Part shown: positions 1-21,246 of the stretch, one piece after another
Position numbering within the stretch: the first letter of the stretch is position 1
How the letters are laid out: each line of letters opens with the position of its first letter
DNA from: Planctomycetota bacterium
GTDB taxonomy: Bacteria; Planctomycetota; MHYJ01; JACPRB01
Length of the DNA: 64,000 nucleotides
NCBI GenBank assembly: GCA_016209705.1
Contig: JACQVR010000065.1
Coordinates: 965-64,964 of the forward strand
Direction: 5' to 3'
Translations under genes and position numbers: made by a program
Notes under the pieces: generated by a model
What the model saw: only the letters and a program-made list of their open reading frames with translations
The model's database searches: none
What the model was told of the DNA's origin: nothing

Positions 1-154
1 CGCCGTGAGGTTCGCGGTCGCTCATCTTGTTTTTCCGGGCCCTTTTAATACCACAAGAGGAGGATGCGCTTTCAGAGTCCGAAGCGGGGGGGCGCCGGCA
101 TCCCCCCTCGCTTCGGCGGCAAGTGCCGCGCCCCGCAATCTTGTGACCGGATGG

Positions 155-262
155 GACGGGGCGCGGAGTCGCGAGTCGCGGGTCCCGAGTCGTGAGTCGC
201 GTTCCCCTGTGGGCGGCTATCCGACTCGGGACTCTCGACTCGAGACTCGGGACACCGCCGCT
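155..262. repeat. Imperfect long inverted repeat built from tandem GAGTCGC/GAGTCGT-type heptamers (arms ~35 nt) around a GC-rich centre, upstream of porin gene
   Basis: Read directly: ggagtcgcgagtcgcgggtcccgagtcgtgagtcgcg ... cgactcgggactctcgactcgagactcggga; right arm is the reverse complement of tandem cgagtc units in the left arm. Confidence 0.6.
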
Positions 263-319
263 CACCATCTGATCACTCTCCTGCGGGCGGCGGTAGTAAG
301 GGCGGCGGGGCGGAAGACG

Positions 320-1693
320 ATGGCCGCGGGGGTCGGCGTCCTGTGGCTGGCCTGCTCGCTTCGGGCGTGGGCCGCGCAAGAGCCGGCGCAGGAGGAGACT
401 CCGAAACCGGCGCCGGAGAAGCCGACTCAAAACGAATACTTCGGCATCCCCGTATCGGGGACTTTTTCCACGAAATATCGCGGCCGCTGGACGAGCGAGG
501 ATCGGGATCAGGATCTCTTTCATTACTTGTCGGTGGATTTCGGCGATCCCGCCCGACAGGACGTGACGGGACATCTCCTACTTCGAGCCACGCAGGATGT
601 GGATGGAGATCGCAATCCCGACGAGTTCTTCGCCTTCACCGACATCACGAATACCTTCAGCAATCGGAACAACGGCCGGCTGTACTACGCTTATCTGGAT
701 GTGACGCATGCGGGGCCGCTGGATCTGGCTCGCGCCGGCAGGCAATTCCTCTATGAAACCCCGGCGCTCTTTTACTTCGACGGCTTTCGGCTCGATTCGA
801 AGCCGTGCGCGGAGGTGAAGAATCTGCAAGTGGGCCTGTACGGCGGCGTCCCGGTTCATATGTATGAATCATCGGCGGGGGGCGACCTCTTGGCCGGAGC
901 GTATCTGGAAGCGCAGCCGTGGAAGGGAGCGAAGGCGCGCGTGGACTATGCCCGGATCCGCGACGATTACCTTTTCGGCACGCAGCGGGACGACCTCTGG
1001 GGAGCGAGCCTGCGGCAATCGCTGGGGGAGATTTTGATCTTGCACGGCCAGTACACGCGCCTGGAAGCGGAAAGCCGGGACCTGCTCCTGCGCGCCAACT
1101 TCTACGAACGGAGCCTGGATCTTCGGGTCGACCTCTCGTGGTACCACCTGTACAACTCCCAGAAGATCCTTTCCATCGAAACGGATTTCTTCTTTTCGTC
1201 CGCCTTTGATTATTTCCCCTACGATCAGGCGCGGCTCCTGGTCGCCAAAGGCGTCGGAGAGTACCTGGTGGTGCAGGGGGGGGTGGACGTCCGCGAGCTC
1301 GACGACGACGCCAAGGAAGCGACGTTCAATCGCGAATTCCGGCGCTTCTATCTCACTCCGGTCTTTTCAAACTGGCCCGTCCCGGGCCTGAGCCTCAGCC
1401 TGACCGGCGAGGCGTGGGAGGTCCCGGGCACCGACAACGGCGACATCCGCACGGGGGGATTCGACGTTAGTCATGCCTACTCGCCACAACTGAAGCTCTC
1501 CGCCGGGGTGGCGTACGCGCTGTTCAAGTACGACTTCTTCGCGAATCTGGAGCGGGAGCGCGTGAGGACCGTGTACGGGAAAATCACCTACAAGGATTTG
1601 AACGGGTTCAAGCTGGACGTGGCCTATGAACTGGAACACGACAGCCTGGATGATTTCCGGACGCTGAAGGTTGGAGCGGCCTATTCGTTCTGA
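320..1693 (+). CDS. Outer-membrane beta-barrel protein, porin-like (candidate Pcc/OmbB-type porin); ~457 aa
   Basis: ATG at 320 inside the ORF track frame 5..1693; N-terminal signal peptide MAAGVGVLWLACSLRAWAAQ; alternating amphipathic beta-strand-like segments rich in Y/F/D/G; C-terminal residue F (GAAYSF), typical of OM beta-barrels; immediately followed by two multiheme cytochromes. Confidence 0.6.
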   Translation: MAAGVGVLWLACSLRAWAAQEPAQEETPKPAPEKPTQNEYFGIPVSGTFSTKYRGRWTSEDRDQDLFHYLSVDFGDPARQDVTGHLLLRATQDVDGDRNPDEFFAFTDITNTFSNRNNGRLYYAYLDVTHAGPLDLARAGRQFLYETPALFYFDGFRLDSKPCAEVKNLQVGLYGGVPVHMYESSAGGDLLAGAYLEAQPWKGAKARVDYARIRDDYLFGTQRDDLWGASLRQSLGEILILHGQYTRLEAESRDLLLRANFYERSLDLRVDLSWYHLYNSQKILSIETDFFFSSAFDYFPYDQARLLVAKGVGEYLVVQGGVDVRELDDDAKEATFNREFRRFYLTPVFSNWPVPGLSLSLTGEAWEVPGTDNGDIRTGGFDVSHAYSPQLKLSAGVAYALFKYDFFANLERERVRTVYGKITYKDLNGFKLDVAYELEHDSLDDFRTLKVGAAYSF

Positions 1694-1701
1694 AAACTCC
1701 A

Positions 1702-2718
1702 ATGATGAAGAAGGTGATGGTCGTCATGGCTGCGACGCTGGCGATTTCCCTTGGCGCCTGCGGGCTCTTGAAATTTCTCGGCCTCGAGAAGGAGCCGGAG
1801 CGGCCGTTCAGCCATCTGAAGCACGGAAAGGAGCAGGATCTGGAATGCCAGAGCTGCCACACGAAGGCCGCCAAGGGGGCTGAAGCCGGAATGCCCGTGA
1901 GCCTGAAGAAATGCATGTTGTGCCACGAAGGGATCGACGAGAAGCAGCCGCCGGAGCGGAAGCTGGCGGCGCTTTATCCGGGCGAAAAACCGGCTTGGTC
2001 GGAGGTGACGAAACTTCCGGACGAGGTGATCTTTTCGCACAAGGTCCATCTCGACAAGAAGGTGGGCTGCGCGGAATGCCACCGGGGGATCGAGGAGAGC
2101 GCGTCGATCACGGAAGCCGTACGGGTGCGAAAAGAAGCTTGCATGGGGTGTCACGCGGAGCGGCAGGCTTCCAACGAATGCTCCACGTGTCACACGGCGA
2201 TTCGGAAAGAGCGGTCCCCTCAGAGCCATGGATTGAGTTGGAAGGAAACGCACGGGAAGGTGGTGCGGCTCGGGATGGAAGATCCTCCCGAGAATCGCTG
2301 CTCGCTGTGTCATACGGAATCGACTTGCACGTCCTGCCACCGCGACGAGCCGCCGAAGAATCACACCCATTTCTGGCGCATCCAGGGACACGCGGTGGCG
2401 GTGGGGGTGGATCGGAGCTCCTGCGCGACCTGTCATCGAACGGACTTCTGCGACCGGTGCCACCAGGATACGCAGCCGCGCACGCACACGGCGGCCTGGG
2501 GCAGTCCTCGAAATTATCATTGCCTCTCCTGCCACACCCCGTTGCGTTCCGAAGGCTGCGCGCTGTGTCACAAGAGCACGCCGAGCCATGCCTTGGCGGC
2601 GCCCAAACCGGACTGGCACACGGAGGGGATGAACTGCCGGCAATGTCACGTGCCGGGGGGGAGCGGACCCATGCCCCACCCGGATAAGGGAGATAACTGC
2701 AATGCATGCCATCCCTAG
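1702..2718 (+). CDS. Multiheme cytochrome c, 13 CxxCH motifs in 338 aa, lipoprotein-type signal (LGAC)
   Basis: CxxCH counted in translation: CQSCH, CMLCH, CAECH, CMGCH, CSTCH, CSLCH, CTSCH, CATCH, CDRCH, CLSCH, CALCH, CRQCH, CNACH; N-term MMKKVMVVMAATLAISLGACG. Confidence 0.85.
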   Translation: MMKKVMVVMAATLAISLGACGLLKFLGLEKEPERPFSHLKHGKEQDLECQSCHTKAAKGAEAGMPVSLKKCMLCHEGIDEKQPPERKLAALYPGEKPAWSEVTKLPDEVIFSHKVHLDKKVGCAECHRGIEESASITEAVRVRKEACMGCHAERQASNECSTCHTAIRKERSPQSHGLSWKETHGKVVRLGMEDPPENRCSLCHTESTCTSCHRDEPPKNHTHFWRIQGHAVAVGVDRSSCATCHRTDFCDRCHQDTQPRTHTAAWGSPRNYHCLSCHTPLRSEGCALCHKSTPSHALAAPKPDWHTEGMNCRQCHVPGGSGPMPHPDKGDNCNACHP

Positions 2719-2863
2719 AAGCGTGTCGAGAAATTCAAGGAGATGTGGAGATATAGGGGATGTAGGAGATAAAACCACGATTCGTGGGGAGAACAGCTCC
2801 ATATCTCCGCTATCCCAACAATCTCCTAGGGAATGCGCCAAGGGTGATTCGCGGGAGGAAGCC

Positions 2864-5731
2864 ATGAACGCAAGAAGAATCCGAGCGGTGTGGCCCCTGT
2901 TGGGTGCTGTCCTATTGCTGCCGATGTGCGGCTGCCTGGATGACGGAGACGAGGGCGTTGCGGGAGATCCCGGCGCCGCCGCGCAACCGCCCCCTACCGA
3001 TACGGTGCTCGATCCCTACAAGTCGCTGCCGGGCGTGGTCCTCTCCATCATCGACGTCGCGGGGGCGTCGGGCGCAGACGGGACGTTCCAGGCGGGCGAC
3101 ACGATTCGGGTGAAATTTACCGTCAAGAAGTCCGACGGCACGGCGCTCCCGGTTTCCGAACTGGACTCCACTTCGATTTACGTCTCGGGTCCCACCTTTA
3201 ACTATCAGCGCGTGATTCCCGCCGCCAGCAACTGGCACACGTCGACGGCATCAAACTCGGACGGCTCCTACACCTACACGTTCGCCTCCGCGATTCCTGC
3301 CACGTACGCGGCTCCCTACAACGATACGAACACCTTCGGGGCCAATGACGGCGAGCTCCAGGGCCAGCCCCTTCTGGCCGGCACATACACGATCGGCATG
3401 CAAGCCTACAAGTACTACACGGTCGAAGGGGTGAATTATCGCGACGTGGGCAACGTGACGAAGGATTTCCTTTTCGGCGGGGCGACCACGCTGGAGCCCC
3501 GCGAGGCCGTGAAACTGGAAAACTGCAATCAGTGCCACGTGACCCTTCAAATGCACGGAGGCACCCGCCGGGATACGAAGCTGTGCGTCCTCTGCCACAC
3601 CGCCGGCGCGGAAGATCGAAACGTCGCCTCGGCGGCGGGAGGCACTCCGGACGTGACCATCGAGTTCAAGGTCATGATTCACAAGATCCATAACGGATTG
3701 CATCTGCCTTCCGTGCTCGGAGTGGCCACCAATCCCAACGGCACGCGTGACTACGCCGCGACGCCGAAGCCCTACAAGATCGTCGGTTACAACAACAGCA
3801 TTCATGATTACTCCGGAGTCGGCTTCCCGGTTTGGCCCAACCTGAATGTGGCGATGCCGCGCGACCAGGGGCACGTCCCTTCAACTCCCGAGGCGTCTCT
3901 GGAAGACGAGATCCGCCGCGGCGTGACCGATTGCGCCAAGTGCCACGGAGATCCGGACGGCGATGGGCCGTTGACCGCCCCCGCGCAAGGGGACCTGGCG
4001 TACGCGCAGCCGTCTCGCCGCGCCTGCGGGGCCTGTCATGACGACATCGACTGGTCGCATCCGTACATCTCCAACGGGCAGACGATGCCATCGCAGGCGA
4101 ACGATTCGGCCTGCGTTCTGTGCCACGTGTCCACGACGAACGGCCTTGACACGGTGAATGCCCACCTGCATCCGCTCAAGAACGCCGCGCTCAATCCGGG
4201 CTTGAACGTCGACATGACGGCCGCGACCCCTTCCGTGGGAACATCGCTCGATCCGGGCGAGAAGCTCGCCGTCACCTTCTCCATCAAGGACGATACCGGA
4301 ACGGATGTCCAGCCCAGCGGGATCGGGCTCAACGTCGTCGTAGCGGGGCCGACCACCAACCGGAACTTGCTCCTGTACACGTCCATTCCCACGGACGCCT
4401 TGGGAGCCATCGCGCCCAGCTACACGTTGAATGTGCCGGAGCGCGTGGCCCTGGAGGGCCTCGGACTGGCCACAGGGGGGGTGGATGTCTTCACGACGGC
4501 CCGCGCTCCGCATTGGAACTTCACGGGCGATCTTACGAGCATCTTGGAAGGCACGTTCACCGGAACGGTCACGACCCTCGCGGCGGCGTCCACGGTGTTT
4601 CAGAACTACGTGGACGCGGTCAGTTCCACCGGGTTCGCCAATAACGACTATATCGTGATCGACCGCGGCTTGGGCACGCAAGAATACCTGCGCGTCCGGC
4701 GCGTCGAAGGGAATCGGTTGTGGTTCTCCACCCGGTACGACAGCTCGGTCTCCTATCAACCCTATCTCCGGATGGCGCACGCTTCAGGCGCCGGTGTCGA
4801 GAAAGTAACGGTCGCGACCAAGGTCGAAGGCACCCAGTGGAGTTGCAACCATACGACGGGCGAGGTCACGTTGGTCGCGGGGCAATTCACGGCCGGTAAG
4901 GCGGTGATTAGCAGCTACACCACGGACTTCGTCATGCCTTCCGTCTTCCCTCCGCCGTTGAACGACTCGCCCGATCTGGACGAAACATGGGGCGAATGGG
5001 CGGGGAAGGCGATCACGAGCGGGACGTACACGGTCGGCGTATGGGGTTCGTACACCTGGACGTACAACGCTTTCGACGACGGTGTTGCGAATCACAACAA
5101 CTCGTACCGAACGACATCCCTGCCCTCTAACAAGGACTTCCTGGTCGGTTCGGCAACCACACTGGCCCCGTACTCGCTCATCGATGTGAGCGCCTCGGGC
5201 GGCCGCTGCAACGAATGTCACAACGAGATCCTCTTCCACGGCGGCAGCCGGCGCAACGTGGAGACGTGCCTCCTATGCCACGGGACGGCCGGATCCGAGG
5301 ACTGGCCCATCTACCGCTCCCCCGTTCCGGCCAATGCGACGCCCGGCGTCACGATCAACTTCAGAACGATGCTGCACAAGATCCACATGGGGGAGGAATT
5401 GGCGAATGCCTCGACCTATACCGTGAACGGCTTTAACGGCGGCGGGCATACCTATGAAGAAGTGGTCTTTCCTGCCATGCCAGGGGCGGTCAAGCACTGC
5501 GACAAGTGCCACGGCTCCTCCGCCGCCTGGAAGGCGCCCGCCGACCGCAATCATCCAACCGAGCAATTCTCGCCCGTGCGCGCGTGGAACGCCGCGTGCG
5601 GTTCATGTCACGATTCCAGCGCTGCACAAGCGCACATCGGGCTTCAGACCTTCAGCGGCTCGGAATCGTGCGCCGTCTGCCACGGGCCGGGACGGGAGTT
5701 CAATGTCGAGTTGATGCATAAGAACCGTTAG
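2864..5731 (+). CDS. Large decaheme c-type cytochrome lipoprotein (~955 aa) with internally duplicated pentaheme modules; candidate cell-surface cytochrome
   Basis: ATG 2864 preceded by gggaggaa RBS; signal + lipobox LLLPMCGC; 10 CxxCH (CNQCH, CVLCH, CAKCH, CGACH, CVLCH, CNECH, CLLCH, CDKCH, CGSCH, CAVCH); repeated module CN(Q/E)CH..(M/F)HGG(T/S)RR..C(V/L)LCH(T/G)AG(A/S)ED and MIHKIHNG / MLHKIHMG; ORF-track 5' extension to 2702 lacks RBS/signal. Confidence 0.8.
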   Translation: MNARRIRAVWPLLGAVLLLPMCGCLDDGDEGVAGDPGAAAQPPPTDTVLDPYKSLPGVVLSIIDVAGASGADGTFQAGDTIRVKFTVKKSDGTALPVSELDSTSIYVSGPTFNYQRVIPAASNWHTSTASNSDGSYTYTFASAIPATYAAPYNDTNTFGANDGELQGQPLLAGTYTIGMQAYKYYTVEGVNYRDVGNVTKDFLFGGATTLEPREAVKLENCNQCHVTLQMHGGTRRDTKLCVLCHTAGAEDRNVASAAGGTPDVTIEFKVMIHKIHNGLHLPSVLGVATNPNGTRDYAATPKPYKIVGYNNSIHDYSGVGFPVWPNLNVAMPRDQGHVPSTPEASLEDEIRRGVTDCAKCHGDPDGDGPLTAPAQGDLAYAQPSRRACGACHDDIDWSHPYISNGQTMPSQANDSACVLCHVSTTNGLDTVNAHLHPLKNAALNPGLNVDMTAATPSVGTSLDPGEKLAVTFSIKDDTGTDVQPSGIGLNVVVAGPTTNRNLLLYTSIPTDALGAIAPSYTLNVPERVALEGLGLATGGVDVFTTARAPHWNFTGDLTSILEGTFTGTVTTLAAASTVFQNYVDAVSSTGFANNDYIVIDRGLGTQEYLRVRRVEGNRLWFSTRYDSSVSYQPYLRMAHASGAGVEKVTVATKVEGTQWSCNHTTGEVTLVAGQFTAGKAVISSYTTDFVMPSVFPPPLNDSPDLDETWGEWAGKAITSGTYTVGVWGSYTWTYNAFDDGVANHNNSYRTTSLPSNKDFLVGSATTLAPYSLIDVSASGGRCNECHNEILFHGGSRRNVETCLLCHGTAGSEDWPIYRSPVPANATPGVTINFRTMLHKIHMGEELANASTYTVNGFNGGGHTYEEVVFPAMPGAVKHCDKCHGSSAAWKAPADRNHPTEQFSPVRAWNAACGSCHDSSAAQAHIGLQTFSGSESCAVCHGPGREFNVELMHKNR

Positions 5732-5781
5732 GAGGAAACGTGGCTTGCGAGTGCCGGAAGAGATGGACGCGGCGCGGGAAC

Positions 5782-6585
5782 ATGATCCTCGCTCAGGGAC
5801 TGTTCCTCTTGGCGCTGGCGTCCATCTTCTGGGCGGCGCTGGCGCGGCGCGGGCCGGCGGCCTCGATGAGCGAAACGCCGCCGCAGGACGTGCCGTCGTT
5901 GCCCCGCGGGCCGGAATCAAGCGGCCCCGTCGCGATAGAGCCTCTTTATGAAACACGAGATCCCGCTGCGGACAAAGCGGCGCGCACCCTTCTCCGCGGC
6001 GGGACCGAAAAGGCGTATGAACGCGAGTTTCGTGAAACCGCGCGGCACCGTCCGGATCGTCTCATGTCGGATATCGAAGCAACTCTGGCGGGCGAGCATC
6101 CCGACGCGCAAAAAGTCGCGGCGTTGCGCGCCGCGTACGAAGTCGGGCGGCTCGACCCGTTTCTTCGCGTGCTCGCTTCCGAGGCGGAAAGTCAGGCGCT
6201 GAGATCCTTCGCGTTGCGGTTCCTGGCCGGCAAGTCGCCACGGACGCCCTCGGCGCGCGCGCTCCTGGCCGATTATGTGAGGATGCGCCCGCCGGAGGAG
6301 GAACAACGACGCGATGCGCTGGCCGCCCTCTTGAGATGGGCGCCCGACCGCGAGCTGGCGGGATATTGGGATCTGTTGACCTTTGAGACCGCGCCGGGGG
6401 CGGCGATCGGCGCGGCGGTGGCCCTGCGCAAGAACGGGAACAATCCGACGGCCGCCGCGGCGCTTCAATACCTGGCGACCGCGCATCCTTCCGCCGAGGT
6501 CCGTCATCGAGCCGCAGAGGAACGTTCGGGCCGGTACTGTCCCGAACATGCCCAAGAGGCGGCGGACCCAGAAGGAGGGTATTGA
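5782..6585 (+). CDS. Membrane-anchored HEAT-repeat-like protein (hypothetical)
   Basis: N-terminal TM MILAQGLFLLALASIFWAAL; C-terminal HEAT/PBS-lyase-like repeats (AAIGAAVALRKNGNNPTAAAALQYLATAHPSAEVRHRAAE). Confidence 0.4.
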   Translation: MILAQGLFLLALASIFWAALARRGPAASMSETPPQDVPSLPRGPESSGPVAIEPLYETRDPAADKAARTLLRGGTEKAYEREFRETARHRPDRLMSDIEATLAGEHPDAQKVAALRAAYEVGRLDPFLRVLASEAESQALRSFALRFLAGKSPRTPSARALLADYVRMRPPEEEQRRDALAALLRWAPDRELAGYWDLLTFETAPGAAIGAAVALRKNGNNPTAAAALQYLATAHPSAEVRHRAAEERSGRYCPEHAQEAADPEGGY

Positions 6586-6667
6586 GCGATGGCGAGGAAT
6601 CGGCCGCATCGATGCGGAAAATTACGGACCTTTGCAAATTGATCATCAAGGACCGCGGTTTTCCGTG

Positions 6668-6683
6668 TGGCAAGAAGCTTGCA
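6668..6683 (+). promoter_or_regulatory. Putative sigma-54 (-24/-12) promoter TGGCAA-N5-TTGCA upstream of tetraheme cytochrome/ResB/CcsA/ACIII-like operon
   Basis: tggcaagaagcttgca matches TGGCAC-N5-TTGCW with one mismatch; the predicted TSS falls ~2 nt before ATG 6696, which conflicts with the GGAGA RBS at -9. Confidence 0.4.
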
Positions 6684-6695
6684 TGGAGATGAGTC

Positions 6696-7367
6696 ATGAA
6701 AAACAAGATTCCGGGCGGTGGGGCGGTGGCGGCGCTCCTGATCGCGATCGGCGCGGCCATGGCGGCGCCTCAAGGGCAGGATGCTGGGAACCGGTACATC
6801 GGGGTCGACAAGTGCAAGAACTGCCATGAGGCCAAGACCAAGGGAAGCCAGTTCTCGCGCTGGAAGGAGACGAAGCACGCCAAAGCCTTCGAGCTTCTCA
6901 CCGGTGATGAGGCCAAGAAAGTCGCCCAAGCCAAAGGAATCTCGGATCCGCACAAGAGCGAGAAATGCCTGAAATGCCATGTCACGGCGTTCGGCCAGCC
7001 CGCCGAACGGCTCGCCAAGGGATTCGAGCCGACCCACGGCATCCAATGCGAAAGCTGCCACGGGCCGGGCGAGAAGCATTTCAAGGTGCGCCTGGCGGCC
7101 GCGGAGGATGAGGAAGAGGGGTATGTCGAAATCCCTGACGGCGAGATCATCAAGAGCCCTCCTCTCAAAACCTGTTTGGGGTGCCACAACGAGGAGAGCC
7201 CGCAGTTCAAGCCCTTCTGCTTCAAGAAGCGGTTCAGCGAGATCCAGCATTGGGACCCTCGCAAGGAGCGAAGCGAGGCGGAAATCAAGGCCGCGCAATG
7301 CGCCTGTCCGGCGGATGGTTGCACCTGCAAGCAAGGGGAATGCGGTGAACTTCACGAGAAAAAGTGA
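6696..7367 (+). CDS. Tetraheme cytochrome c, secreted, with C-terminal Cys-rich tail
   Basis: Signal peptide MKNKIPGGGAVAALLIAIGAAMAAPQ; CKNCH, CLKCH, CESCH, CLGCH; C-term CACPADGCTCKQGECGELH. Confidence 0.8.
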   Translation: MKNKIPGGGAVAALLIAIGAAMAAPQGQDAGNRYIGVDKCKNCHEAKTKGSQFSRWKETKHAKAFELLTGDEAKKVAQAKGISDPHKSEKCLKCHVTAFGQPAERLAKGFEPTHGIQCESCHGPGEKHFKVRLAAAEDEEEGYVEIPDGEIIKSPPLKTCLGCHNEESPQFKPFCFKKRFSEIQHWDPRKERSEAEIKAAQCACPADGCTCKQGECGELHEKK

Positions 7368-9321: not shown

Positions 9322-10130
9322 GCGCGTTCTTCGCCGAAAGGCCCCTCGTTCTGGCGATTCTCGTCGCCCACGGGATGGCGTTGCTCCTTTGGACGGCCGG
9401 CGCCGTTTTGAAGAAGAAAGGCCTGCGGGTGGGAGCCGGAGTCGTGTTCGGAGTCGCCTTCCTTCTCAACACGGCGGTGATCGCCCAGCGCTGGATCGAG
9501 GCGGGGCGGGCGCCGTTCAAGACGCTGTACGAAACGCTGCTCTTTTATCCGTGGTGCGTGGCGTTGGTAACGCTGGTTCTCCTCGCCCTTTATCGCCTGG
9601 GCGTCTTGATCCCTTTCGCTTCGGCGGCGTGCGCGGGAGGACTCCTCTACGCCGCGTCGCGGCCGGATGTCGAGATCGTCAATCTTCCGCCGGCGCTTCA
9701 GAGCGGATGGTTCGTGCCTCACGTGGTGACGTACTTCGTGGCGTACGCGGCGCTCTTCGCGTCGTTCGCGCTCTCGCTTCTGGCGCTCGTTCGTCCGGCG
9801 TGGAAATCGGAAGGCGGCGAGGCGGGATTCGAGGAGTACGCCCATCGCGCCGTGATGTTCGGTTTCGCGGCGCTCACCATGGGCCTGGTCATGGGCGCGA
9901 TATGGGGCAAGGAAGCCTGGGGCGATTACTGGTCCTGGGATCCCAAGGAGAACTGGGCGCTGGTGAGCTGGCTGGCGTACCTGATCTATCTCCATCTGCG
10001 CCTGGTGAAAGGTTGGCGCGGGCGTCCCGCGCTCGTGGTCTGTCTCCTGGCCTTTGTCGCGGTCGTCTTCACGTATCTGGGGATGAGCTCGCTTCCCTCT
10101 GCATCGGATAGCCTGCATGTTTACCAGTAG
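9318..10130 (+). CDS. ccsA: Cytochrome c assembly protein CcsA/ResC (System II heme lyase subunit)
   Basis: WWD-domain motif WGDYWSWDPKENWALVSWLAYLIYLH; multiple TM helices; translationally coupled to resB. Confidence 0.85.
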   Translation: MSAFFAERPLVLAILVAHGMALLLWTAGAVLKKKGLRVGAGVVFGVAFLLNTAVIAQRWIEAGRAPFKTLYETLLFYPWCVALVTLVLLALYRLGVLIPFASAACAGGLLYAASRPDVEIVNLPPALQSGWFVPHVVTYFVAYAALFASFALSLLALVRPAWKSEGGEAGFEEYAHRAVMFGFAALTMGLVMGAIWGKEAWGDYWSWDPKENWALVSWLAYLIYLHLRLVKGWRGRPALVVCLLAFVAVVFTYLGMSSLPSASDSLHVYQ

Positions 10131-10632
10131 GAAGACCTTGATCGTCGTCGGAATGGCGGCGCTGACGAGCGCCGCGGTCGTGGCGCAGATGACGGGCCGC
10201 GGCGCGAGCGATGTGACGCAGCCGCTGGCGTTCAATCACAAACGCCACATCGAAGAAGGCATGAGTTGCCTGGACTGCCACAAGGGGGCCGACCAGCGGG
10301 CCGAGGCCGGGTTTCCTCCGATCCGGAGCTGTCTCTTGTGCCACTCGGAAGCCAAGGGAACCCATCCCGACGAACCCAAGATCCGGGAATTCGCGGAGCG
10401 CAAGGAGTCCATCCCATGGATTCGGGTGAACCGCATGCCGGGCCATGTCTATTTCTCCCACGCGGCCCACGTGGCGTACGCCAAGATGGACTGCCGCGAA
10501 TGCCACGGAGAGATGAAGGACCGCACCGAGCCCGTCACCCGGTCTCAGGTGGACCATTTGAACATGAACCGGTGCATGGCCTGTCACGACTCGAAAGGGG
10601 TCAGCACCGATTGCCTGCGGTGTCACAAATGA
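10117..10632 (+). CDS. Pentaheme cytochrome c, membrane-anchored (ActA/QrcA-like)
   Basis: CLDCH, CLLCH, CRECH, CMACH, CLRCH; N-terminal anchor/signal MFTSRKTLIVVGMAALTSAAVVAQ; stop overlaps next start (ATGA at 10629-10632). Confidence 0.8.
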   Translation: MFTSRKTLIVVGMAALTSAAVVAQMTGRGASDVTQPLAFNHKRHIEEGMSCLDCHKGADQRAEAGFPPIRSCLLCHSEAKGTHPDEPKIREFAERKESIPWIRVNRMPGHVYFSHAAHVAYAKMDCRECHGEMKDRTEPVTRSQVDHLNMNRCMACHDSKGVSTDCLRCHK

Positions 10633-13049
10633 ACCAGGAACGCGAGACGAAGTGGGGCCGGCGGGAATTCCTGACCGCGGCGGGCGCCGCCGCGGGAGGG
10701 CTCACGCTGGCGGGTTGTTCCGAGAAGGGAGATCCCTACGCCTTGGAGAAGTCGGGGGTTCCCGGGGAGTCCACGTGGAGCCGCGGCGAGGAGAAGTGGA
10801 TCGCCACCGCCTGCGGCATGTGTGCGGCGGGATGCGGCATTCGCGTGCGGGTGGTCGAAGGCCGGGCGGTGAAGATCGAGGGCCATCCGGATTGTCCGCT
10901 GAACCGCGGCGGCGTCGGACCCAAAGGTCAATCGGGACTACAACTGTTGTACCATCCGGACCGGATCCGCGGGCCCTTGCGTCGCGACGGCGCCAGAGGA
11001 TCGGGAAGCTGGAAGCGGGTTTCGTGGGATGACGCCCTGGGAGAGATCGGACGCGCGCTTCGCGAGCTGCGCTCCCAGGGGGAATCGCGCGGCGTGGTCG
11101 TCCTCGACGGCGAACCGCGGGGGATGATGCCGCAGTTATGGGATCGCTTTCTCGAGGCGTACGGGAGCCCCAACCACATCGATCATCACTCCGCGACGGA
11201 CGGCGGAAAGGTCCTCGCGACGGCGTACATGCACGGCGTGCCCGAACTGCCCGCGTACGACTGGGAAAACACGCAGTATGTCCTCGGATTCGGCGCGAGC
11301 CTGTTCGAATCGTGGTGCCAGTCCATTCATTTCATGCGCGCGGCGGTCCACATGCGCCGCGGCGTCCCGGGCCGGCGGGCCAAATTTGTCCAGGTCTCGC
11401 CCCGCTTCTCGGTGACGGCCGCGCGCGCCGACGAGTGGGTGCCCATCGAGCCGGCCACGTACGGAGCCCTCGCGCTCGGCTTGGCGCACGTCTTGATCAA
11501 GGAAGACCTCTACGACGAAGCGTTCGTCCGCGATCACACGTTCGGATTCGAGCCCTGGAAGGATGAGGAAGGGAAGGCGCATCGAGGGTTTCGAGATCTA
11601 GTTCTGGAGGACTATCCGCCCGATAAAGTATCCCCAATCACCGGCGTTCCCGTCGAGACGATCGTGCGCCTGGCGCAGGAAATGGCCGCGCATCGACCCG
11701 CCATTTCGCTGGCGGACGGTGGCGCGGCGGCCGCCACGAACGGATTGGGAACGGCCATGGCGATCCATGCCCTCAACGCTTTGCTGGGAAACCTGGAGCG
11801 TCCCGGAGGAATGATCGTCCAGCGGGCCGCGCCTCTGGCGCCATGGAAAGCCGTCGAGGCGGATGAAACGGCCCGAAAGAACCGGCAGGCGCCGAGAATC
11901 GACGGGACGGGAGACGGGGCTTGCCCGCTCGGAAGAGGTTTCATCCAGGGTCTTCCCGAAACCGTCCTCTCCGGAAATCCCTATCCCGTCAAAGCGCTGT
12001 TTCTTTATCGGTCCAATCCTGTTTTCTCGAAACCCGACGGCCGCCGCTGGGCGGAAGCGATCCAAAAGATCCCGCTCGTGGTGAGCTTTTCCCCCCTGCC
12101 CGATGAGTCCACGTTTTGGGCCGACTTCATCCTGCCGGAATCCACGTACTTCGAACGGTGGGAGATCGTCGAACCCGTCCCCAGCGTGGGCCATCCGGTG
12201 GTGACGTTTCGCCAGCCCGTCGTCGCCCCTCTGTACGACACGATGGCCGCGGGCGACGCGCTGATCCGTCTGGCGAACGCGGTGGGCTCTCCCGTGGCGG
12301 ACGCCTTCCCCTGGGAAAGCTACCGCAAGGCGCTCGAAGAGCGGATCAAAGGTTTCCTGGGAAAAGAAGGGTCGACGGCCGCGACGAAAATGTCGGCCTT
12401 GATCAAAGGACTTCAAAAGGATGGAGGATGGTGGGCTCCCGGATACTCGTTTGAGAAATGGGAGACGGCGTTTCCTACCCCCTCGGGCAAGTTCGAGTTT
12501 TATTCCCGGGAGATCGCCGGTCGGCTCGCGAAGGCGTTCCCGGATGCGGCCGCGCTGGAAAAGCATCTCGCCGGCGCGGGTGTGGCCACGCGCGGGGACG
12601 ACCTGTGCCTTCCTCATTGGGAGCCTCCGCGCTTTTCCGGCAGCGCCGGCGCCTATCCGTTCGTTCTCGTGGTTTATCGAGGGATCAACTACGCGGAAGG
12701 CGGCGTCCGCCACATCCCGGGGCTCCGTGAACTTCCCGGCTCGGGCCGCCTGACGTGGAAGGAGCGCATCGAATTGAACCCCGAGGATGCGCGCCACCTG
12801 GGCATCGACGACGGCACGCCGGTGCGGGTTGAATCTCCCGCGGGCGTGCGCGTTTTGTACGCTCAAATATTTGCGGGAGTTCGTCCCGGGACCGTTGCGC
12901 TTCCGCTCGGTCACGGACCTTGGCCCCCTGAGCCTACCTTGCAGGTCGCCGGCGGCTACGGCCTTCTGGACAATCTGAGCGATCCCTTGGGAGGCATCCT
13001 GGCGCTCCAGGGAACGCGGGTACGCATCCTCAAGGAGGAAGGGGTATGA
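10629..13049 (+). CDS. Molybdopterin-oxidoreductase (MopB) family catalytic-like subunit with Tat signal and N-terminal 4Fe-4S motif (ActB1/PsrA/QrcB-like)
   Basis: ATG 10629 (ORF-track upstream extension lies inside the cytochrome gene); twin-arginine GRREFLTAAGAAAGGLTLAGCS; CGMCAAGCG...HPDCPLNRG MopB FeS-binding N-terminus; ~807 aa. Confidence 0.8.
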   Translation: MNQERETKWGRREFLTAAGAAAGGLTLAGCSEKGDPYALEKSGVPGESTWSRGEEKWIATACGMCAAGCGIRVRVVEGRAVKIEGHPDCPLNRGGVGPKGQSGLQLLYHPDRIRGPLRRDGARGSGSWKRVSWDDALGEIGRALRELRSQGESRGVVVLDGEPRGMMPQLWDRFLEAYGSPNHIDHHSATDGGKVLATAYMHGVPELPAYDWENTQYVLGFGASLFESWCQSIHFMRAAVHMRRGVPGRRAKFVQVSPRFSVTAARADEWVPIEPATYGALALGLAHVLIKEDLYDEAFVRDHTFGFEPWKDEEGKAHRGFRDLVLEDYPPDKVSPITGVPVETIVRLAQEMAAHRPAISLADGGAAAATNGLGTAMAIHALNALLGNLERPGGMIVQRAAPLAPWKAVEADETARKNRQAPRIDGTGDGACPLGRGFIQGLPETVLSGNPYPVKALFLYRSNPVFSKPDGRRWAEAIQKIPLVVSFSPLPDESTFWADFILPESTYFERWEIVEPVPSVGHPVVTFRQPVVAPLYDTMAAGDALIRLANAVGSPVADAFPWESYRKALEERIKGFLGKEGSTAATKMSALIKGLQKDGGWWAPGYSFEKWETAFPTPSGKFEFYSREIAGRLAKAFPDAAALEKHLAGAGVATRGDDLCLPHWEPPRFSGSAGAYPFVLVVYRGINYAEGGVRHIPGLRELPGSGRLTWKERIELNPEDARHLGIDDGTPVRVESPAGVRVLYAQIFAGVRPGTVALPLGHGPWPPEPTLQVAGGYGLLDNLSDPLGGILALQGTRVRILKEEGV

Positions 13050-13867
13050 CGGAGCGCTCAGCCAACTTTGAAAAACCGTCGCGGCGAGGCGTGCTCGGGG
13101 CGATTCTCGGAGCACTGAGTTCCCCGATCGTCCTTTCCAGGCGGCTCTTCGCCGCGGCGGCTCGCCGGAAAATCAAGTGGGGAATGGTCATCGATCTGGA
13201 CAAGTGCACGGGATGCCGGGGGTGCGCCGCGGCGTGCCGGGCGGAGAACAACATCGCCACGGCCGGGCCCGAACGGGCCGAAGAAGGGCGCGGGATCTAC
13301 TGGATGGACCTGCTCACCGTGGAGGAGGGAGAATACCCCAACCTCCGCTCCCAGTTCATTCCCACGCCGTGCAATCACTGCGAGAACGCGCCGTGCGTGA
13401 AGGTCTGCCCGGTGGGCGCGACTTACATTAATGAGGAAGGAATCGTCGCTCAGATCTGGGCACGCTGCATCGGGTGCCGCTATTGCACGACGGCATGCCC
13501 TTACACGCGCCGGTACTTCAACTGGCAGGCGCCGTCATGGCCGGAGGAAGATCGGCAGCGTCTCAATCCCGACGTGGCCACGCGCCCCAAAGGCGTCGTC
13601 GAAAAATGCACGTTCTGTCACCATCGGATCCGCGCGGCGCGCGAGTCCGCCCGCGCGGAGGGGCGGTTGCTGTCCGATGCCGACGTGCGAAAGCTGCCGG
13701 CGTGCGCGCAATCCTGCCCCGCGGAAGCGATCGTCTTCGGGGATCTGAACGATCCGGAGTCTGAGGTGTCGCGCCTGGCCGCCAGCCCGCGGGCTTTCCG
13801 ATTGCAAGAGGAACTGGGCACGCATCCCAAGGTGGTCTATCTGCGGGAGGCCAAATGGCGGGAATAG
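13046..13867 (+). CDS. 4Fe-4S ferredoxin-type subunit (PsrB/NrfC/ActB2-like), Tat-like N-terminus
   Basis: SRRGVLGAILGA; Cys clusters CTGCRGCAAAC, CNHCENAPCVKVCP, CIGCRYCTTACP, CTFCHH, CAQSCP. Confidence 0.85.
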   Translation: MTERSANFEKPSRRGVLGAILGALSSPIVLSRRLFAAAARRKIKWGMVIDLDKCTGCRGCAAACRAENNIATAGPERAEEGRGIYWMDLLTVEEGEYPNLRSQFIPTPCNHCENAPCVKVCPVGATYINEEGIVAQIWARCIGCRYCTTACPYTRRYFNWQAPSWPEEDRQRLNPDVATRPKGVVEKCTFCHHRIRAARESARAEGRLLSDADVRKLPACAQSCPAEAIVFGDLNDPESEVSRLAASPRAFRLQEELGTHPKVVYLREAKWRE

Positions 13868-13872
13868 GAGCC

Positions 13873-15207
13873 ATGGAAATCGAGGAGCCCAGGTCGCCGA
13901 GGTTCACGTTCGAGGTGCAACCGATCTTCGAGCCGCTGCGGAGAACAGGGGCGGGATTTTATTGGGCGGCCGCGGCTCTGCTGGCCGTGGTGGCCTTTGG
14001 GGTTTACGCCTATGTGCGGCAGTATGTTTACGGCCTGGGCGTGACCGGCATGAACCGGCCCATGTACTGGGGCGTGTACATGGCGAACTTCGTCTTCTTC
14101 ATCGGCATCTCGCACGCGGGTACGCTCATTTCGGCGATCTTGCGGGTATCGGGAGCGGAGTGGAGGCGGCCGGTGACCCGCTGCGCCGAGGTGATCACCG
14201 TATTCGCCCTCATCTTCGGCGCCCTCTCGGTAATCCTGGATTTGGGCCGTCCCGACCGGCTCCTGAACGTGCTGCGGCATGGCCGCCTTCAGTCGCCCAT
14301 CCTGTGGGACGTTTGCTGCATCAGCACCTACCTCACGGGAAGCCTCATCTATCTTTATCTCCCGCTCATCCCGGACATGGCGATCTTGAGGGACCGAAAG
14401 GAAGGGCGAGTGTGGCTCTATCGGTTCCTCGCCATCGGTTACCGCGGGACGGCGGGGCAAAAGAAGCGCCTCGAATTCTGGATCGCCGTCATGGCCATCC
14501 TGATCATCCCGATCGCCGTCTCGGTGCACACGGTCGTCTCCTACATCTTCGCCACGACGCTCCAGCCCGGCTGGCACAGCACGATCTTCGGCCCCTATTT
14601 CGTCGTGGGCGCGATTTTCTCGGGGTTGGCGGCGCTCATGATCGCCATGGCGATCATCCGTCGCGGATTCCGTCTCGAAGGGGTCCTCAAGGACATTCAC
14701 TTCAACAATCTGGGACTGATCCTGCTGGTGATGACCTGTCTCATGATCTACTTCACGTTCAACATCTATCTGGTCGAGATCACCGGCAACGAACCTTTGA
14801 TCATGGCGTCGGTGCTGGCCAAGGTCAACGGACCGTATGCCGTGCCGTTTTGGGGGATGATCGTCGGCGGCATGATCGTCCCGGCCATCATTCTGGCTTT
14901 TCCCAAGGGACGCACCGTGACCGGGTGCGTCATCGCCTCGGTCTTGATTCTCGTGGCGATGTGGGTGGAGCGGTTCCTGATCGTAGTCCCCACGCTGATT
15001 CATCCGCGCCTTCCCTGGACCGCAGGTTCCTACGCCCCCACCTGGGTCGAATGGGCGATCACGGCCGGGTGCCTGGCCGCCTTCGCGTTGCTGTACCTGC
15101 TGTTCACCAAGGTGTTCCCGATCGTCTCGATCTGGGAGGTCCAGGAGGGCATCGATGAAGCCATTCCCAAGGTGCGGGAACGGTTCAAGCACTACATGCC
15201 GGACTGA
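13873..15207 (+). CDS. NrfD/PsrC-family polytopic membrane quinone-interacting subunit (ActC-like)
   Basis: Multiple TM helices; NrfD-family pattern; RBS aggag before ATG 13873 (alternative ATG 13855 overlaps upstream stop). Confidence 0.75.
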   Translation: MEIEEPRSPRFTFEVQPIFEPLRRTGAGFYWAAAALLAVVAFGVYAYVRQYVYGLGVTGMNRPMYWGVYMANFVFFIGISHAGTLISAILRVSGAEWRRPVTRCAEVITVFALIFGALSVILDLGRPDRLLNVLRHGRLQSPILWDVCCISTYLTGSLIYLYLPLIPDMAILRDRKEGRVWLYRFLAIGYRGTAGQKKRLEFWIAVMAILIIPIAVSVHTVVSYIFATTLQPGWHSTIFGPYFVVGAIFSGLAALMIAMAIIRRGFRLEGVLKDIHFNNLGLILLVMTCLMIYFTFNIYLVEITGNEPLIMASVLAKVNGPYAVPFWGMIVGGMIVPAIILAFPKGRTVTGCVIASVLILVAMWVERFLIVVPTLIHPRLPWTAGSYAPTWVEWAITAGCLAAFALLYLLFTKVFPIVSIWEVQEGIDEAIPKVRERFKHYMPD

Positions 15208-15234
15208 TCTCCCGCGAAAAGGGGGTGATCGCAC

Positions 15235-16785: not shown

Positions 16786-16808
16786 AAGAAAGGGTTTCGT
16801 AAAGAGGT

Positions 16809-16887
16809 GGAACCGCCAAAACGCCGAATCGCCAAACGAGATCCACCGCAAGAAGTACCCGATGGCGCTTTAGCGCTTTGGCGGTTC
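16809..16887 (+). promoter_or_regulatory. Inverted repeat GAACCGCCAAA (16810-16820) / TTTGGCGGTTC (16877-16887) in kinase-regulator intergenic region; left arm is part of a ~27-nt motif also present at 30046-30088
   Basis: Read directly: gtggaaccgccaaaacgccgaatcgccaaa ... gctttggcggttcatc. Confidence 0.45.
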
Positions 16888-16900
16888 ATCTGAATAAAAC

Positions 16901-18334: not shown

Positions 18335-18341
18335 ATCTCCC

Positions 18342-18383
18342 GAAATAAACTTCCCCGCGGCTTGCCGCGGGGAAGTTTATTTC
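18342..18383 (+). terminator. Perfect 19-bp stem hairpin (gaaataaacttccccgcgg ctt g ccgcggggaagtttatttc) after regulator gene
   Basis: Perfect palindrome read directly; no long T tract, so a terminator or a regulatory hairpin. Confidence 0.5.
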
Positions 18384-18524
18384 ACATTCATGGGAAACGT
18401 GTCACGCTCGTGTGAAAAGCGCCTTTTCGCCATTCTGGACGTTTGATTTCATTTTTCGTCCCCTTCGGCTCGATTCCTTGTTCCACCCATGGAACGTTGT
18501 CGCCCTTGAGGGGCTTCCAGAGCA

Positions 18525-18540
18525 TGGCAAACGTTTTGCT
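18525..18540 (+). promoter_or_regulatory. Sigma-54 promoter TGGCAA-N5-TTGCT ~57 nt upstream of decaheme cytochrome gene
   Basis: tggcaaacgttttgct matches TGGCAC-N5-TTGCW (1 mismatch); immediately downstream of a sigma-54 activator gene; leader ~46 nt with RBS ggaaggag. Confidence 0.6.
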
Positions 18541-18596
18541 CTACCCCAAGAACACGGCAGAGGTTGTTTACTCCAAGACTCCGGAAGGAGAACGAC

Positions 18597-20714: not shown

Positions 20715-20721
20715 GCACGTG

Positions 20722-20754
20722 AAAAAAAAGCCCGTCGTGAAGACGGGCTTTTTT
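20722..20754. terminator. Rho-independent (bidirectional) terminator: A-tract, GCCCGTC stem, GTGAA loop, GACGGGC, T6
   Basis: aaaaaaaagcccgtcgtgaagacgggctttttt read directly after cytochrome stop. Confidence 0.8.
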
Positions 20755-20795
20755 GATGGTTCGGCCTCAACGAGGCCGGAGCGTTACTTCAGGCC

Positions 20796-21107: not shown

Positions 21108-21117
21108 GTCGTTTTCC

Positions 21118-21246
21118 TTAGATGAACCGGTCCGGTAGTTCGCTCTTGCCCACCCTTCTCCGGCCGTACAGGATCAGGAATTCCGCCCGTCGGGTTGCGG
21201 CCATCCGTTTCAGGCTCGCCAGCTCCCGCTCCCGGTCAAGCCACAT
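21118..21246 (-). pseudogene. N-terminal 43-codon fragment of an AAA/Arch_ATPase-type ATP-binding protein, truncated by stop
   Basis: Hand translation of minus strand: MWLDRERELASLKRMAATRRAEFLILYGRRRVGKSELPDRFI*; characteristic GRRRVGKS P-loop region then TAA. Confidence 0.4.

Follow-up and report, generated by a model that had tools for sequence, protein, structure and literature searches.

What is the function of three closely spaced genes, encoding a putative outer-membrane barrel and two multiheme cytochromes, in an uncultured groundwater planctomycete? In the 64,000 nucleotides of DNA that we analysed (the window), these ORFs lie at 320-1693, 1702-2718, and 2864-5731, all on the + strand. 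An earlier note had read them as a porin-cytochrome conduit, comprising a 457-aa barrel protein that ends in F, a 338-aa protein with 13 CxxCH motifs, and a 955-aa protein with 10 CxxCH motifs and a lipobox. All of these features are present. We confirmed that these are real genes and not chance ORFs, because the barrel and 13-heme families are large and the gene order is kept across 79 independent genome loci. For these three genes, we infer both a conduit function and a direction of electron flow. The barrel, the 13-heme lipoprotein, and the MtrC-type decaheme cytochrome quite likely form a conduit that moves respiratory electrons across the outer membrane. This reading is supported by a plug-less model of the barrel, by the constant adjacency of the barrel and 13-heme genes, and by the lipoboxes.

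The first gene (320..1693, HY716_08370) is annotated as hypothetical, and NCBI's protein call (MBI4564686.1) is the same 457 aa. The protein has a Sec signal peptide with AWA/A and a C-terminal end of ...AAYSF; the final F is kept across the family. The AF2 model (pLDDT 86, pTM 0.80) has 22 strands, and the signal peptide and the barrel account for all 457 aa, with no plug domain. This model indicates that the product is a 22-strand, plug-less outer-membrane barrel. We found no model for this family in Pfam or NCBIfam. The protein also has no homology to curated families of outer-membrane proteins (OmpA, TonB-dependent receptors, and others), two of which the earlier note had named as findings that would speak against its reading. 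We considered MtrB/PioB as well and ruled it out, as the MtrB/PioB models were not matched. At E <= 1e-3, the family has 1,073 representatives (clusters at 50% identity).

Among barrel genes whose sequence ran on downstream, a homolog of the 13-heme gene follows directly in 83/83 pairs (82 loci). These loci are from Planctomycetota (including anammox lineages), Nitrospirota, SAR324, Acidiferrobacterales, and others, and at least six phylum-level groups show the adjacency. For the barrel versus the 13-heme protein, pairwise distances give a correlation of r = 0.89, and for the barrel versus the decaheme, r = 0.58 (29 triples). The barrel and 13-heme genes stay together in all the phyla covered, and they co-diverge. 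A pattern of co-divergence like this one was reported earlier for Pcc by Shi et al. An ortholog of the decaheme gene follows the pair in about 33 loci from Planctomycetota. In four related loci, the gene after the pair is for a TtrA-like molybdoenzyme instead of an MtrC-like protein, so a surface cytochrome is not the only partner of the pair.

Might the barrel be nothing more than a channel for diffusion or for a substrate (e.g., chelated metals, polysulfide, or tetrathionate) that is merely co-expressed with the cytochromes and has no cytochrome inside? We consider this very unlikely. That one specific cytochrome family adjoins the barrel in every checkable locus, with such strong co-divergence, would not be expected for an ordinary porin, and 22 strands without a plug or constriction domain would form an unusually wide open pore. 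Also, 22 strands fall within the range of 18-22 predicted for known Pcc porins.

The second gene (1702..2718, MBI4564687.1) begins 8 nt after the barrel gene and is annotated as "cytochrome c3 family." Its product, of 338 aa, contains exactly 13 CxxCH motifs, or 26 aa per heme, the lowest residue-per-heme ratio of the locus. Its lipobox, LGAC, is at residues 17-20. We found 477 matches to this family at E <= 1e-10; among the matches listed, 114/120 have 13 CxxCH motifs, and nearly all of the homologs keep the lipobox Cys20. These features mark it as a conserved putative lipoprotein. The N-terminal ~165 aa match ActA and QrcA (E = 1e-11 to 4e-16), and this part also matches the ActA fold (Foldseek probability 1.0), which was the only fold match in PDB. 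The QrcA model gives 65 bits, far under its cutoff of 180, and the C-terminal half of the predicted structure has low confidence (pLDDT about 50-65). Membership in the MtrA/DmsE family was rejected (TIGR03508, 22.9 bits versus a cutoff of 192; no match to the MtrA fold). Overall, the base of the 13-heme protein appears to be an ActA/QrcA-like pentaheme module, as opposed to OmaB or MtrA. The protein shares with ActA a membrane anchor at the N-terminus; unlike ActA or QrcA, it has about 8 extra hemes, and its gene is coupled to a gene for an outer-membrane barrel.

The third gene (2864..5731, MBI4564688.1, annotated as hypothetical) lies within a longer ORF (2702-5731) with 10 CxxCH motifs, arranged five plus five. 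The true start is MNARR at 2864, with GGGAGG upstream, which gives a protein of 955 aa that is identical to NCBI's. It scores 269 bits against TIGR03507 (cutoff 209.3) and matches PF22113 twice. A profile of its family matches MtrF (3pmq, E = 3.3e-28), as well as MtrC and UndA. The alignment to MtrF is collinear from the lipobox and linker through hemes 1-5 to hemes 6-10, and the homologs keep the lipobox and the G/D-rich linker. It thus shares with MtrF, OmcA, and UndA the layout of a surface decaheme, with a lipobox, a G/D linker, and two pentaheme domains. It is about 285 aa longer than Shewanella's decahemes; both its N-terminal domain and the stretch between its two heme domains are larger. 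Judging from these matches, the protein is a true member of the OmcA/MtrC family, of the Shewanella type and not OmcB-like, and we propose that it is the cell-surface terminal cytochrome. The earlier note had suggested that both cytochromes are lipid-anchored; lipoboxes are conserved family-wide in each, which points the same way.

The earlier note had also likened the locus to the OmbB-OmaB-OmcB conduit of Geobacter sulfurreducens. The gene order does agree (the barrel first, the inner cytochrome next, and the outer lipoprotein cytochrome last), and OmbB, compared by description, is also a small barrel (about 20 strands) with the same overall mechanism proposed. But the protein families do not agree. 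OmaB is soluble and has 8 hemes, while its counterpart here has 13 hemes and is probably lipidated and ActA/QrcA-derived. OmcB, with 12 hemes, has no relation to MtrC, while its counterpart has 10 hemes and belongs, by its family score, with OmcA/MtrC.

The locus has in common with Shewanella MtrCAB (PDB 6R2Q) the concept of a barrel-sheathed heme wire. MtrB, however, has 26 strands and about 650-700 aa, versus 22 strands and 457 aa here, and the gene order is barrel-wire-MtrC instead of mtrC-A-B. By analogy to MtrA in MtrB, the 13-heme chain would lie inside the lumen of the barrel, and this wire would span the roughly 4-nm membrane and protrude into the periplasm. The MtrC-like decaheme would then cap the barrel at the cell surface. 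One point against this picture is that the "periplasmic" wire would carry a lipid anchor, in contrast to MtrA and OmaB.

The genes downstream (5740-20714, all on the + strand) include potential partners. The first gene is an ORF of 281 aa (5740..6585) with a hydrophobic segment at the N-terminus. Its only Pfam match is weak and HEAT-like (HEAT_2, sub-threshold), and we found no homolog of this ORF in 82 related loci. It is probably co-transcribed with the module, and it is doubtful that it belongs to the conduit system. Next is a c554-like tetraheme cytochrome (6696..7367, 223 aa) with a signal peptide, 4 CxxCH motifs, and a match to PF13435 (5.5e-17). Its homologs are downstream of the MtrC-like gene in over 20 related loci, and we propose that it is a periplasmic shuttle. 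A ResB/CcsB-like gene (7423-9321; PF05140, 2.8e-37; start uncertain) and a CcsA-like gene (9318-10130; PF01578, 2.3e-39; TIGR03144, 185.2 bits, just under the cutoff of 187.6) appear to be a System II pair for cytochrome c maturation. This pair, which would mature the island's 42 c-type hemes, also adjoins the module in four other loci (L004, L007, L011, and L027).

The pair is followed by genes for a QrcA/ActA-like pentaheme protein (10117-10632; QrcA, 103.5 bits), a molybdopterin-like subunit with a Tat signal (10629-13049; QrcB, 274.8 bits; Pfam Molybdopterin), a 4Fe-4S subunit (13046-13867; QrcC, 288.5 bits; Pfam Fer4), and an NrfD-type membrane subunit (13855-15207; QrcD, 45.8 bits; Pfam NrfD). 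Together (10117..15207), these appear to encode a four-subunit, Qrc-like complex that interacts with quinones. Because all four Qrc scores from NCBIfam are under the equivalog cutoffs, an ACIII-like quinol oxidase is equally possible. Qrc-like genes are near the module in many related loci.

Given these neighbors, we considered whether the inner membrane, as for ActA, holds the anchor of the 13-heme lipoprotein, which would then serve the Qrc-like complex as a cytochrome subunit or docking partner. The eight extra hemes would then cross the periplasm into the barrel and form a continuous wire, with no diffusible shuttle. The homology of the N-terminal ~165 aa to ActA and QrcA, in both sequence and fold, fits this idea, as does the conserved N-terminal membrane anchor of the family. 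Also, Mo-like/FeS/NrfD genes adjoin the barrel/13-heme pair in many loci, and at four of these (L004, first copy; L005; L010; L036) they come directly after it with no intervening MtrC-like gene. However, the window already has a separate gene for a QrcA-like pentaheme protein, directly before that of the Mo-like subunit. The 13-heme gene is paired with the barrel gene and not with the Qrc genes, and thirteen hemes, at an estimated 10-13 nm or so, may fall short of crossing the periplasm plus the outer membrane. We view this arrangement as improbable.

The rest of the island contains a sensor histidine kinase (15235-16785; HAMP, HisKA, HATPase_c) and a sigma-54-dependent response regulator (16901-18334; Response_reg, Sigma54_activat, HTH_8), which are candidate regulators of the island, and a second MtrC/OmcA-like decaheme lipoprotein (18597..20714, HY716_08435, annotated as hypothetical). 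NCBI's call for the latter is the same 705-aa protein. It has 10 CxxCH motifs, the lipobox ASCGGEDG, and a match to PF22113 (1.1e-26), and it scores 164.7 bits against TIGR03507, under the cutoff of 209. It is possibly an OmcA-like partner.

In which direction do the electrons flow? Qrc proper runs inward (quinone reduction), while ACIII runs outward. We lean weakly towards outward (reductive) flow because an MtrC-type surface cytochrome is typical of reducer clusters. Electrons from the menaquinol pool would pass through the Qrc-like complex (MHC/Mo-like/FeS/NrfD) and the c554-like shuttle to the conduit, and the surface decaheme would reduce acceptors that are insoluble or macromolecular (for example, Fe(III)/Mn(IV) oxides or humics); the second decaheme may aid this delivery. 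Alternatively, and with clearly lower probability, the same assembly could run in reverse and draw electrons from a cathode or from Fe(II), Mn(II), or reduced humics outside the cell. These electrons would travel inward along the 13-heme wire and via the c554-like shuttle to the Qrc-like complex (menaquinone reduction, as in Desulfovibrio Qrc) or to a terminal oxidase or reductase. The adjacent membrane complex does best match subunits of Qrc, a quinone reductase fed from the periplasm, and multiheme conduits are in principle reversible. Members of the barrel family are also found in MAGs of Acidiferrobacterales, Betaproteobacteria, and Nitrospirota, lineages that include lithotrophs. On the other hand, the clusters of Fe(II) oxidizers (Mto/Pio) usually lack an MtrC-type surface cytochrome, and this island has two; also, the sub-equivalog Qrc scores leave the ACIII-like alternative just as possible.

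The locus is a hybrid variant of an already known type. Among described systems, it is closest to the two-gene Pcc of Ca. Kuenenia stuttgartiensis (kuste4024/4025) and Anaeromyxobacter spp., which comprises a porin and a 338-344 aa cytochrome with 12-14 hemes (Shi, Fredrickson & Zachara 2014, PMC4245776). Compared by description, the two are alike in that a porin gene adjoins a cytochrome gene, here for 338 aa and 13 hemes, and Kuenenia is from the same phylum as our host. However, those systems were described without an outer-membrane cytochrome, and the large cytochrome was proposed to be sufficient, whereas an MtrC-family decaheme is found here and in the Planctomycetota loci counted above. 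Also, their cytochrome was predicted to be soluble and periplasmic, whereas the lipobox here is conserved family-wide. The earlier note's proposal of a distinct Pcc variant therefore stands as to type. Its argument from heme counts does not: 13 hemes are not new in themselves, as a ~340-aa, 12-14-heme cytochrome with a porin has been known since 2014. Anammox MAGs carry homologous barrel/13-heme pairs (for instance, the cytochrome at L043 has 343 aa and 13 hemes), and an anammox orthologous pair is reported in the literature to be expressed during electrode respiration. The three-gene module, which quite likely carries electrons across the outer membrane, is found in dozens of Planctomycetota genomes, whose annotations call its products hypothetical or "cytochrome c3" and nothing more.

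The window has a G+C content of about 60-70%. Within the plus-strand ORF at 5-1693, an ATG at 320 begins a 457-aa protein with a Sec-type leader (MAAGVGVLWLACSLRAWA, followed by AQEP) and the C-terminus AAYSF. We will call this protein the barrel. The ORF at 1702-2718, also on the plus strand, starts 8 nt past the barrel's stop codon; its 338-aa product, the wire, contains exactly 13 CxxCH. The plus-strand ORF at 2702-5731 contains 10 CxxCH, arranged 5+5. Its functional start is MNARR at 2864, with GGGAGG just before it, which gives a protein of 955 aa with a lipobox-like LLPMCGC (the cap). An exact look-up found the identical three proteins in GenBank on a 73.6 kb contig of a Planctomycetota MAG: MBI4564686.1 (barrel, "hypothetical"), MBI4564687.1 (wire, "cytochrome c3 family protein"), and MBI4564688.1 (cap, "hypothetical"). 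Because the ORFs, the motif counts, and the GenBank proteins agree, the earlier note described these genes accurately.

The 320-nt non-coding leader 5' of the barrel gene holds an imperfect inverted repeat of 36 nt at 157-257 (81% complementary; arms 157-192 and 222-257), which consists of tandem GAGTCGCG / CGACTCGGGAC-like units. A regulator may bind there, or the repeat may be an upstream terminator or a REP-like element. A promoter and terminator scan of 1-7500 gave nothing above shuffled background.

The earlier note proposed counting the beta strands encoded at 320-1693, and the confident AlphaFold2 (AF2) model has 22. The barrel has no family in Pfam or NCBIfam (the sole match is a sub-threshold one of its C-terminus to Porin_4, 17.8 bits vs. 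a cutoff of 27), and it has no match among PDB sequences. It is not an MtrB/PioB/MtoB protein (PF11854 or TIGR03509), as these match the family HMM and have 26-28 strands in about 650-800 aa. Its top structural neighbours are TonB-dependent receptors and fimbrial ushers, which are recognized by a plug or N-/C-terminal periplasmic domains, a TonB box, and family HMM matches; the barrel does not qualify as either. Thus the earlier note's concern that the barrel might belong to an unrelated family of outer-membrane proteins was not borne out. Essentially all homologs end in an aromatic residue, almost always F, which is consistent with an outer-membrane protein that is assembled by BAM.

In an exhaustive profile search of representatives clustered at 50% identity, the barrel family numbered 1,073 sequences at E <= 1e-3, of which 834 passed E <= 1e-10. 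So, this is a sizeable family that lacks a curated Pfam or NCBIfam model. Its membership extends to proteins from anammox MAGs. When the profile was widened with sequences from Nitrospirota, SAR324, and anammox bacteria and was run against a word-prefiltered named collection, all 30 matches were already known. Given standard barrel geometry (n = 22, S about 24), the modelled barrel would have a C-alpha diameter of ~4 nm. Barrels of this size class house the plug of TonB receptors, so a slim heme-peptide chain would be expected to fit.

The wire belongs to a family with hundreds of members, all of them labelled "cytochrome c3 family." Among the 120 best homologs, 114 have 13 CxxCH. Every heme-motif Cys and His is invariant, as are several further His. 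Cys20, which ends an N-terminal hydrophobic segment, is kept in at least 90% of homologs, usually in a [GA][GA]C context. This indicates that the lipobox that the earlier note saw in this protein is a trait of the whole family. Residues 7-165 or so resemble QrcA (65.3 bits vs. a cutoff of 180, for a match at 7-164), and the same stretch is similar to ActA from four structures of Alternative Complex III (E = 4e-16 to 5e-11). The AF2 model is good for the N-terminal half and poor for the C-terminal half. Foldseek with this model against the PDB found ActA chains alone; MtrA was absent.

We considered two known identities for the wire. It scores 22.9 bits against the model for MtrA/DmsE/MtoA/PioA (TIGR03508, cutoff 192.2), has 13 hemes instead of 10, and has no fold match to MtrA. 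A full QrcA (NF041781) or subunit A of Alternative Complex III should reach the equivalog score over its full length, and should be a penta- or hexaheme subunit that is encoded with Mo-like, FeS, and NrfD subunits. The wire's match is partial and below the cutoff, the wire is encoded beside a barrel, and a separate QrcA-like gene (103.5 bits) accompanies the Qrc-like genes of the window. Given the sequence matches to QrcA and ActA, the fold matches to ActA only, and the low DmsE/MtrA score, the wire looks like an ActA/QrcA-type pentaheme protein with eight added hemes, and not like a relative of MtrA. With 26 residues per heme, it is more tightly packed than MtrA, for which about 33 residues per heme is quoted in the literature. 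The homology to ActA, along with the presence of Mo/FeS genes directly after the barrel and wire genes in some loci, also suggests a rival, less likely arrangement, in which the wire would be anchored in the inner membrane and docked on the Qrc-like complex.

The cap is a member of the OmcA/MtrC family: it scores 269 bits against TIGR03507 (cutoff 209.3), and its ten CxxCH lie in two pentaheme domains. It also has two matches to PF22113 (MtrC/MtrF domains II/IV; 1.1e-41). A profile of 20 orthologs aligns to MtrF (3pmq; 3.3e-28) in five collinear pieces, which are the lipobox with a G/D-rich linker, hemes 1-2, hemes 3-5, hemes 6-7, and hemes 8-10. Further matches of this profile are UndA, the MtrC in the 6R2Q complex, and S. 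oneidensis MtrC. The cap's N-terminus, LLPMCGC-LDDGDEG, aligns to the lipobox region of MtrF, and a regular expression found the canonical L-x-G/A-C and a G/D-rich linker in 35 of 40 homologs. The cap is thus predicted to have a lipoprotein signal and a flexible G/S/D linker. It exceeds MtrC and MtrF in length by ~285 aa, which lie in its N-terminal domain and in a ~360-aa segment between the heme domains. The earlier note had likened the architecture to ombB-omaB-omcB of Geobacter; the two cytochromes are not of the OmaB and OmcB types: there are 13 and 10 CxxCH instead of 8 and 12, the wire has a lipobox while OmaB is soluble, and the cap belongs to the OmcA/MtrC family.

To examine the distribution of these genes, we searched one genome per GTDB species with a profile from 13 close barrel sequences. 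We analyzed the resulting 79 loci, and three more from exact look-ups, with ORF calls and phmmer. Most loci are from MAGs of Planctomycetota, including bins labelled Brocadiaceae, Ca. Anammoxibacter, and Ca. Subterrananammoxibius. The others are from Nitrospirota/Thermodesulfovibrionales, SAR324, Acidiferrobacterales, Beta- and Deltaproteobacteria, and Coatesbacteria. Wherever the sequence runs on, a homolog of the wire is encoded directly 3' of the barrel (83 pairs). Because this pairing is obligate, it is unlikely that the barrel is a plain substrate porin. An ortholog of the cap comes next in about 33 Planctomycetota loci (600-1,100 bits, 10 CxxCH), and in four further loci it is upstream or divergently transcribed. 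In related loci, a c554-like tetraheme cytochrome commonly follows the cap, and Qrc-like Mo/FeS/NrfD genes and ResB/CcsA often lie nearby.

For 29 complete triples, we compared pairwise distances with Mantel tests. The correlations, all of which are inflated by shared species history, were r = 0.89 for barrel and wire, 0.67 for wire and cap, and 0.58 for barrel and cap (p = 0.001 for each). This ranking matches the pattern reported by Shi et al. 2014 (PMC4245776), in which the porin and the inner cytochrome co-evolve and the outer cytochrome is more exchangeable.

The barrel is steady at about 430-480 aa, while the heme number of the adjacent cytochrome depends on the lineage: 13 in Planctomycetota and 12 in SAR324 (loci L065, L070, and L080; SAR324/Delta). 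In Nitrospirota, Betaproteobacteria, and Acidiferrobacterales (L059-L078, with others) it is 7, and the gene is flanked by a divergently transcribed 9-heme gene on its upstream side and by a gene for 6-8 hemes on its downstream side. In Ca. Anammoxibacter (L048 and L054) it is 19, and another 19-heme protein follows.

Some loci differ in what surrounds the pair. In four loci from Planctomycetota, namely L004 (153-6883), L005 (808-7643), L010 (7917-14524), and L036 (7917-13995), the MtrC-like gene after the pair is replaced by genes for a small 3-4-heme cytochrome, a ~1,050-aa TtrA-like molybdoenzyme with a Tat signal, and an FeS subunit. Therefore, the pair may also serve periplasmic molybdoenzymes. 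Genes for multiheme quinol dehydrogenases of the NapC/NirT family (CymA-like) adjoin the barrel gene in L001 (8586-10004) and L002 (9106-9723), where the window has a Qrc-like complex; the inner-membrane entry modules seem to be interchangeable among related loci. Also, the barrel and wire genes are present twice in several MAGs, on the same or different contigs (L004; L006 and L021; L020 and L037; L036 and L077; L050 and L051; L016 and L018), which suggests paralogous conduits, as in Geobacter.

In the window, the cap gene is followed on the plus strand by a 281-aa ORF (5740-6585), which we do not treat as a core part of the system, as it has no homolog in any related locus. Next are a c554-like tetraheme cytochrome (6696-7367), ResB and CcsA (7423-10130), a four-gene complex of multiheme cytochrome, Mo-like, FeS, and NrfD subunits (10117-15207), and a histidine kinase with a sigma-54 activator (15235-18334; activator at 16901-18334). 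For the four-gene complex, QrcA-D are the best-scoring models, with each subunit below its equivalog cutoff. Across five cytochromes there are 42 CxxCH motifs in total.

Directly after the activator gene, 18597-20714 (+) encodes a second MtrC/OmcA-like decaheme lipoprotein (HY716_08435; 705 aa, "hypothetical" in GenBank). It has 10 CxxCH, an ASCGGEDG lipobox, a match to PF22113, and a below-cutoff score of 164.7 bits for TIGR03507. Three small ORFs without a family match (20569-22132) separate it from another NrfD-type (NrfD/DsrP-like) membrane protein (22328-23920, +; 530 aa). A sigma-54-like -24/-12 motif, TGGCAAACGTTTTGCT (18525-18540; 1 mismatch), lies ~55 nt 5' of the second decaheme gene, and another, TGGCAAGAAGCTTGCA (6668-6683, +; 1 mismatch), lies 12 nt 5' of the c554-like start at 6696. 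The pattern is not enriched across the window (25 matches vs. 20.4 expected from shuffles), and we treat these two putative sites directly 5' of cytochrome genes as a lead only.

Farther along the window, 32000-41000 differs from the rest: it is markedly richer in G+C (68-72%), and its AT skew is strongly positive, with values up to 0.31. Its genes are on the minus strand, and one of them (34724-37441) codes for 905 aa that include a Proton_antipo_M domain (Mrp/Nuo antiporter). At 60535-63630 (-) is a 1,031-aa fusion of radical SAM, SPASM, and class I SAM methyltransferase domains.

Shi et al. 2014 (PMC4245776) defined porin-cytochrome (Pcc) clusters by their architecture, with porins of 18-22 strands whose mutual identity is as low as 8%. 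With 22 strands, a cytochrome gene 8 nt after the barrel's stop codon, and 83 such pairs, the system belongs to the Pcc class in this sense, as the earlier note had proposed. Shi et al. also described two-gene clusters from Kuenenia and Anaeromyxobacter, whose cytochromes have 338-344 aa and 12-14 hemes. The barrel and wire fit this published description, and similar pairs occur in anammox MAGs, so, from this match by description, they very probably belong to the same lineage. The anammox pair is expressed when growth depends on an electrode.

Earlier work flagged PCC genes in MAGs of Planctomycetota, once adjoining an NrfD-type complex, and porin-multiheme cytochrome clusters that resemble Mtr and Pcc, yet are divergent from them, were recently reported from Acidobacteriota and Verrucomicrobiota. 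PCC3 and PCC4 of Fe(II) oxidizers have other components. In the searchable literature, we did not find a description of a conserved Planctomycetota module that combines a small Pcc-type barrel with a 13-heme wire that is lipidated and derived from ActA, and with a cap that truly belongs to the OmcA/MtrC family. Nor did we find anything specific on a 13-heme porin partner or on an MtrC-type cytochrome in Planctomycetota Pcc clusters.

Of the models considered, a porin-cytochrome conduit has the best support; the genes at 320-5731 are real and conserved, and they probably encode a functional conduit in the outer membrane. Fold class, family memberships, lipoboxes, synteny, and co-divergence were computed. 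From these we infer how the parts would be threaded, exposed, and in contact: the barrel would sheathe the lipid-anchored wire, the MtrC-type lipoprotein would cap the barrel at the cell surface, and the Qrc-like complex and the c554-like cytochrome would link the conduit to the quinone pool. As for direction, the Qrc-like neighbour is compatible with inward flow as well. However, MtrC-type caps such as this one accompany reducers and are usually missing from the clusters of Fe(II) oxidizers (Shi et al. 2014, PMC4245776), so we lean towards outward flow.

A more ambitious proposal is that the conduit represents a distinct chimeric trans-envelope class, and that this is the main route of extracellular electron transfer in non-anammox Planctomycetota. 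We think that this is improbable. Under this proposal, an unmodelled family of 22-strand barrels and a lipid-anchored 13-heme wire may have been joined by a horizontally acquired, Shewanella-type MtrC cap, and the wire may have arisen by extension of the ActA/QrcA pentaheme subunit of an inner-membrane quinol complex. In its strongest form, the wire's ActA-like head may still dock on the adjacent Qrc-like complex. If so, quinol oxidation and the crossing of the outer membrane would occur in one supercomplex, without a diffusible shuttle.

The porin-cytochrome conduit is not categorically new, and it would not startle a specialist. It does imply that conduits for extracellular electron transfer are modular, as the barrel and the wire that accompany an MtrC-type surface cytochrome need not be related to MtrAB. 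HMM-based surveys that demand MtrB or MtrA beside MtrC will therefore overlook such systems, and both the barrel family and the 13-heme family merit curated models.

Planctomycetota abound in groundwater, sediments, soils, and wastewater. As far as we know, those outside the anammox clade are not considered to respire metals or humic substances. The module is present in dozens of genomes, beside its own genes for cytochrome maturation and quinone coupling, which turns extracellular electron transfer by Planctomycetota into a concrete hypothesis, and cloning could test it. The conduit thus extends the modularity of Mtr and Pcc systems and gives extracellular electron transfer in this phylum a basis that can be tested.
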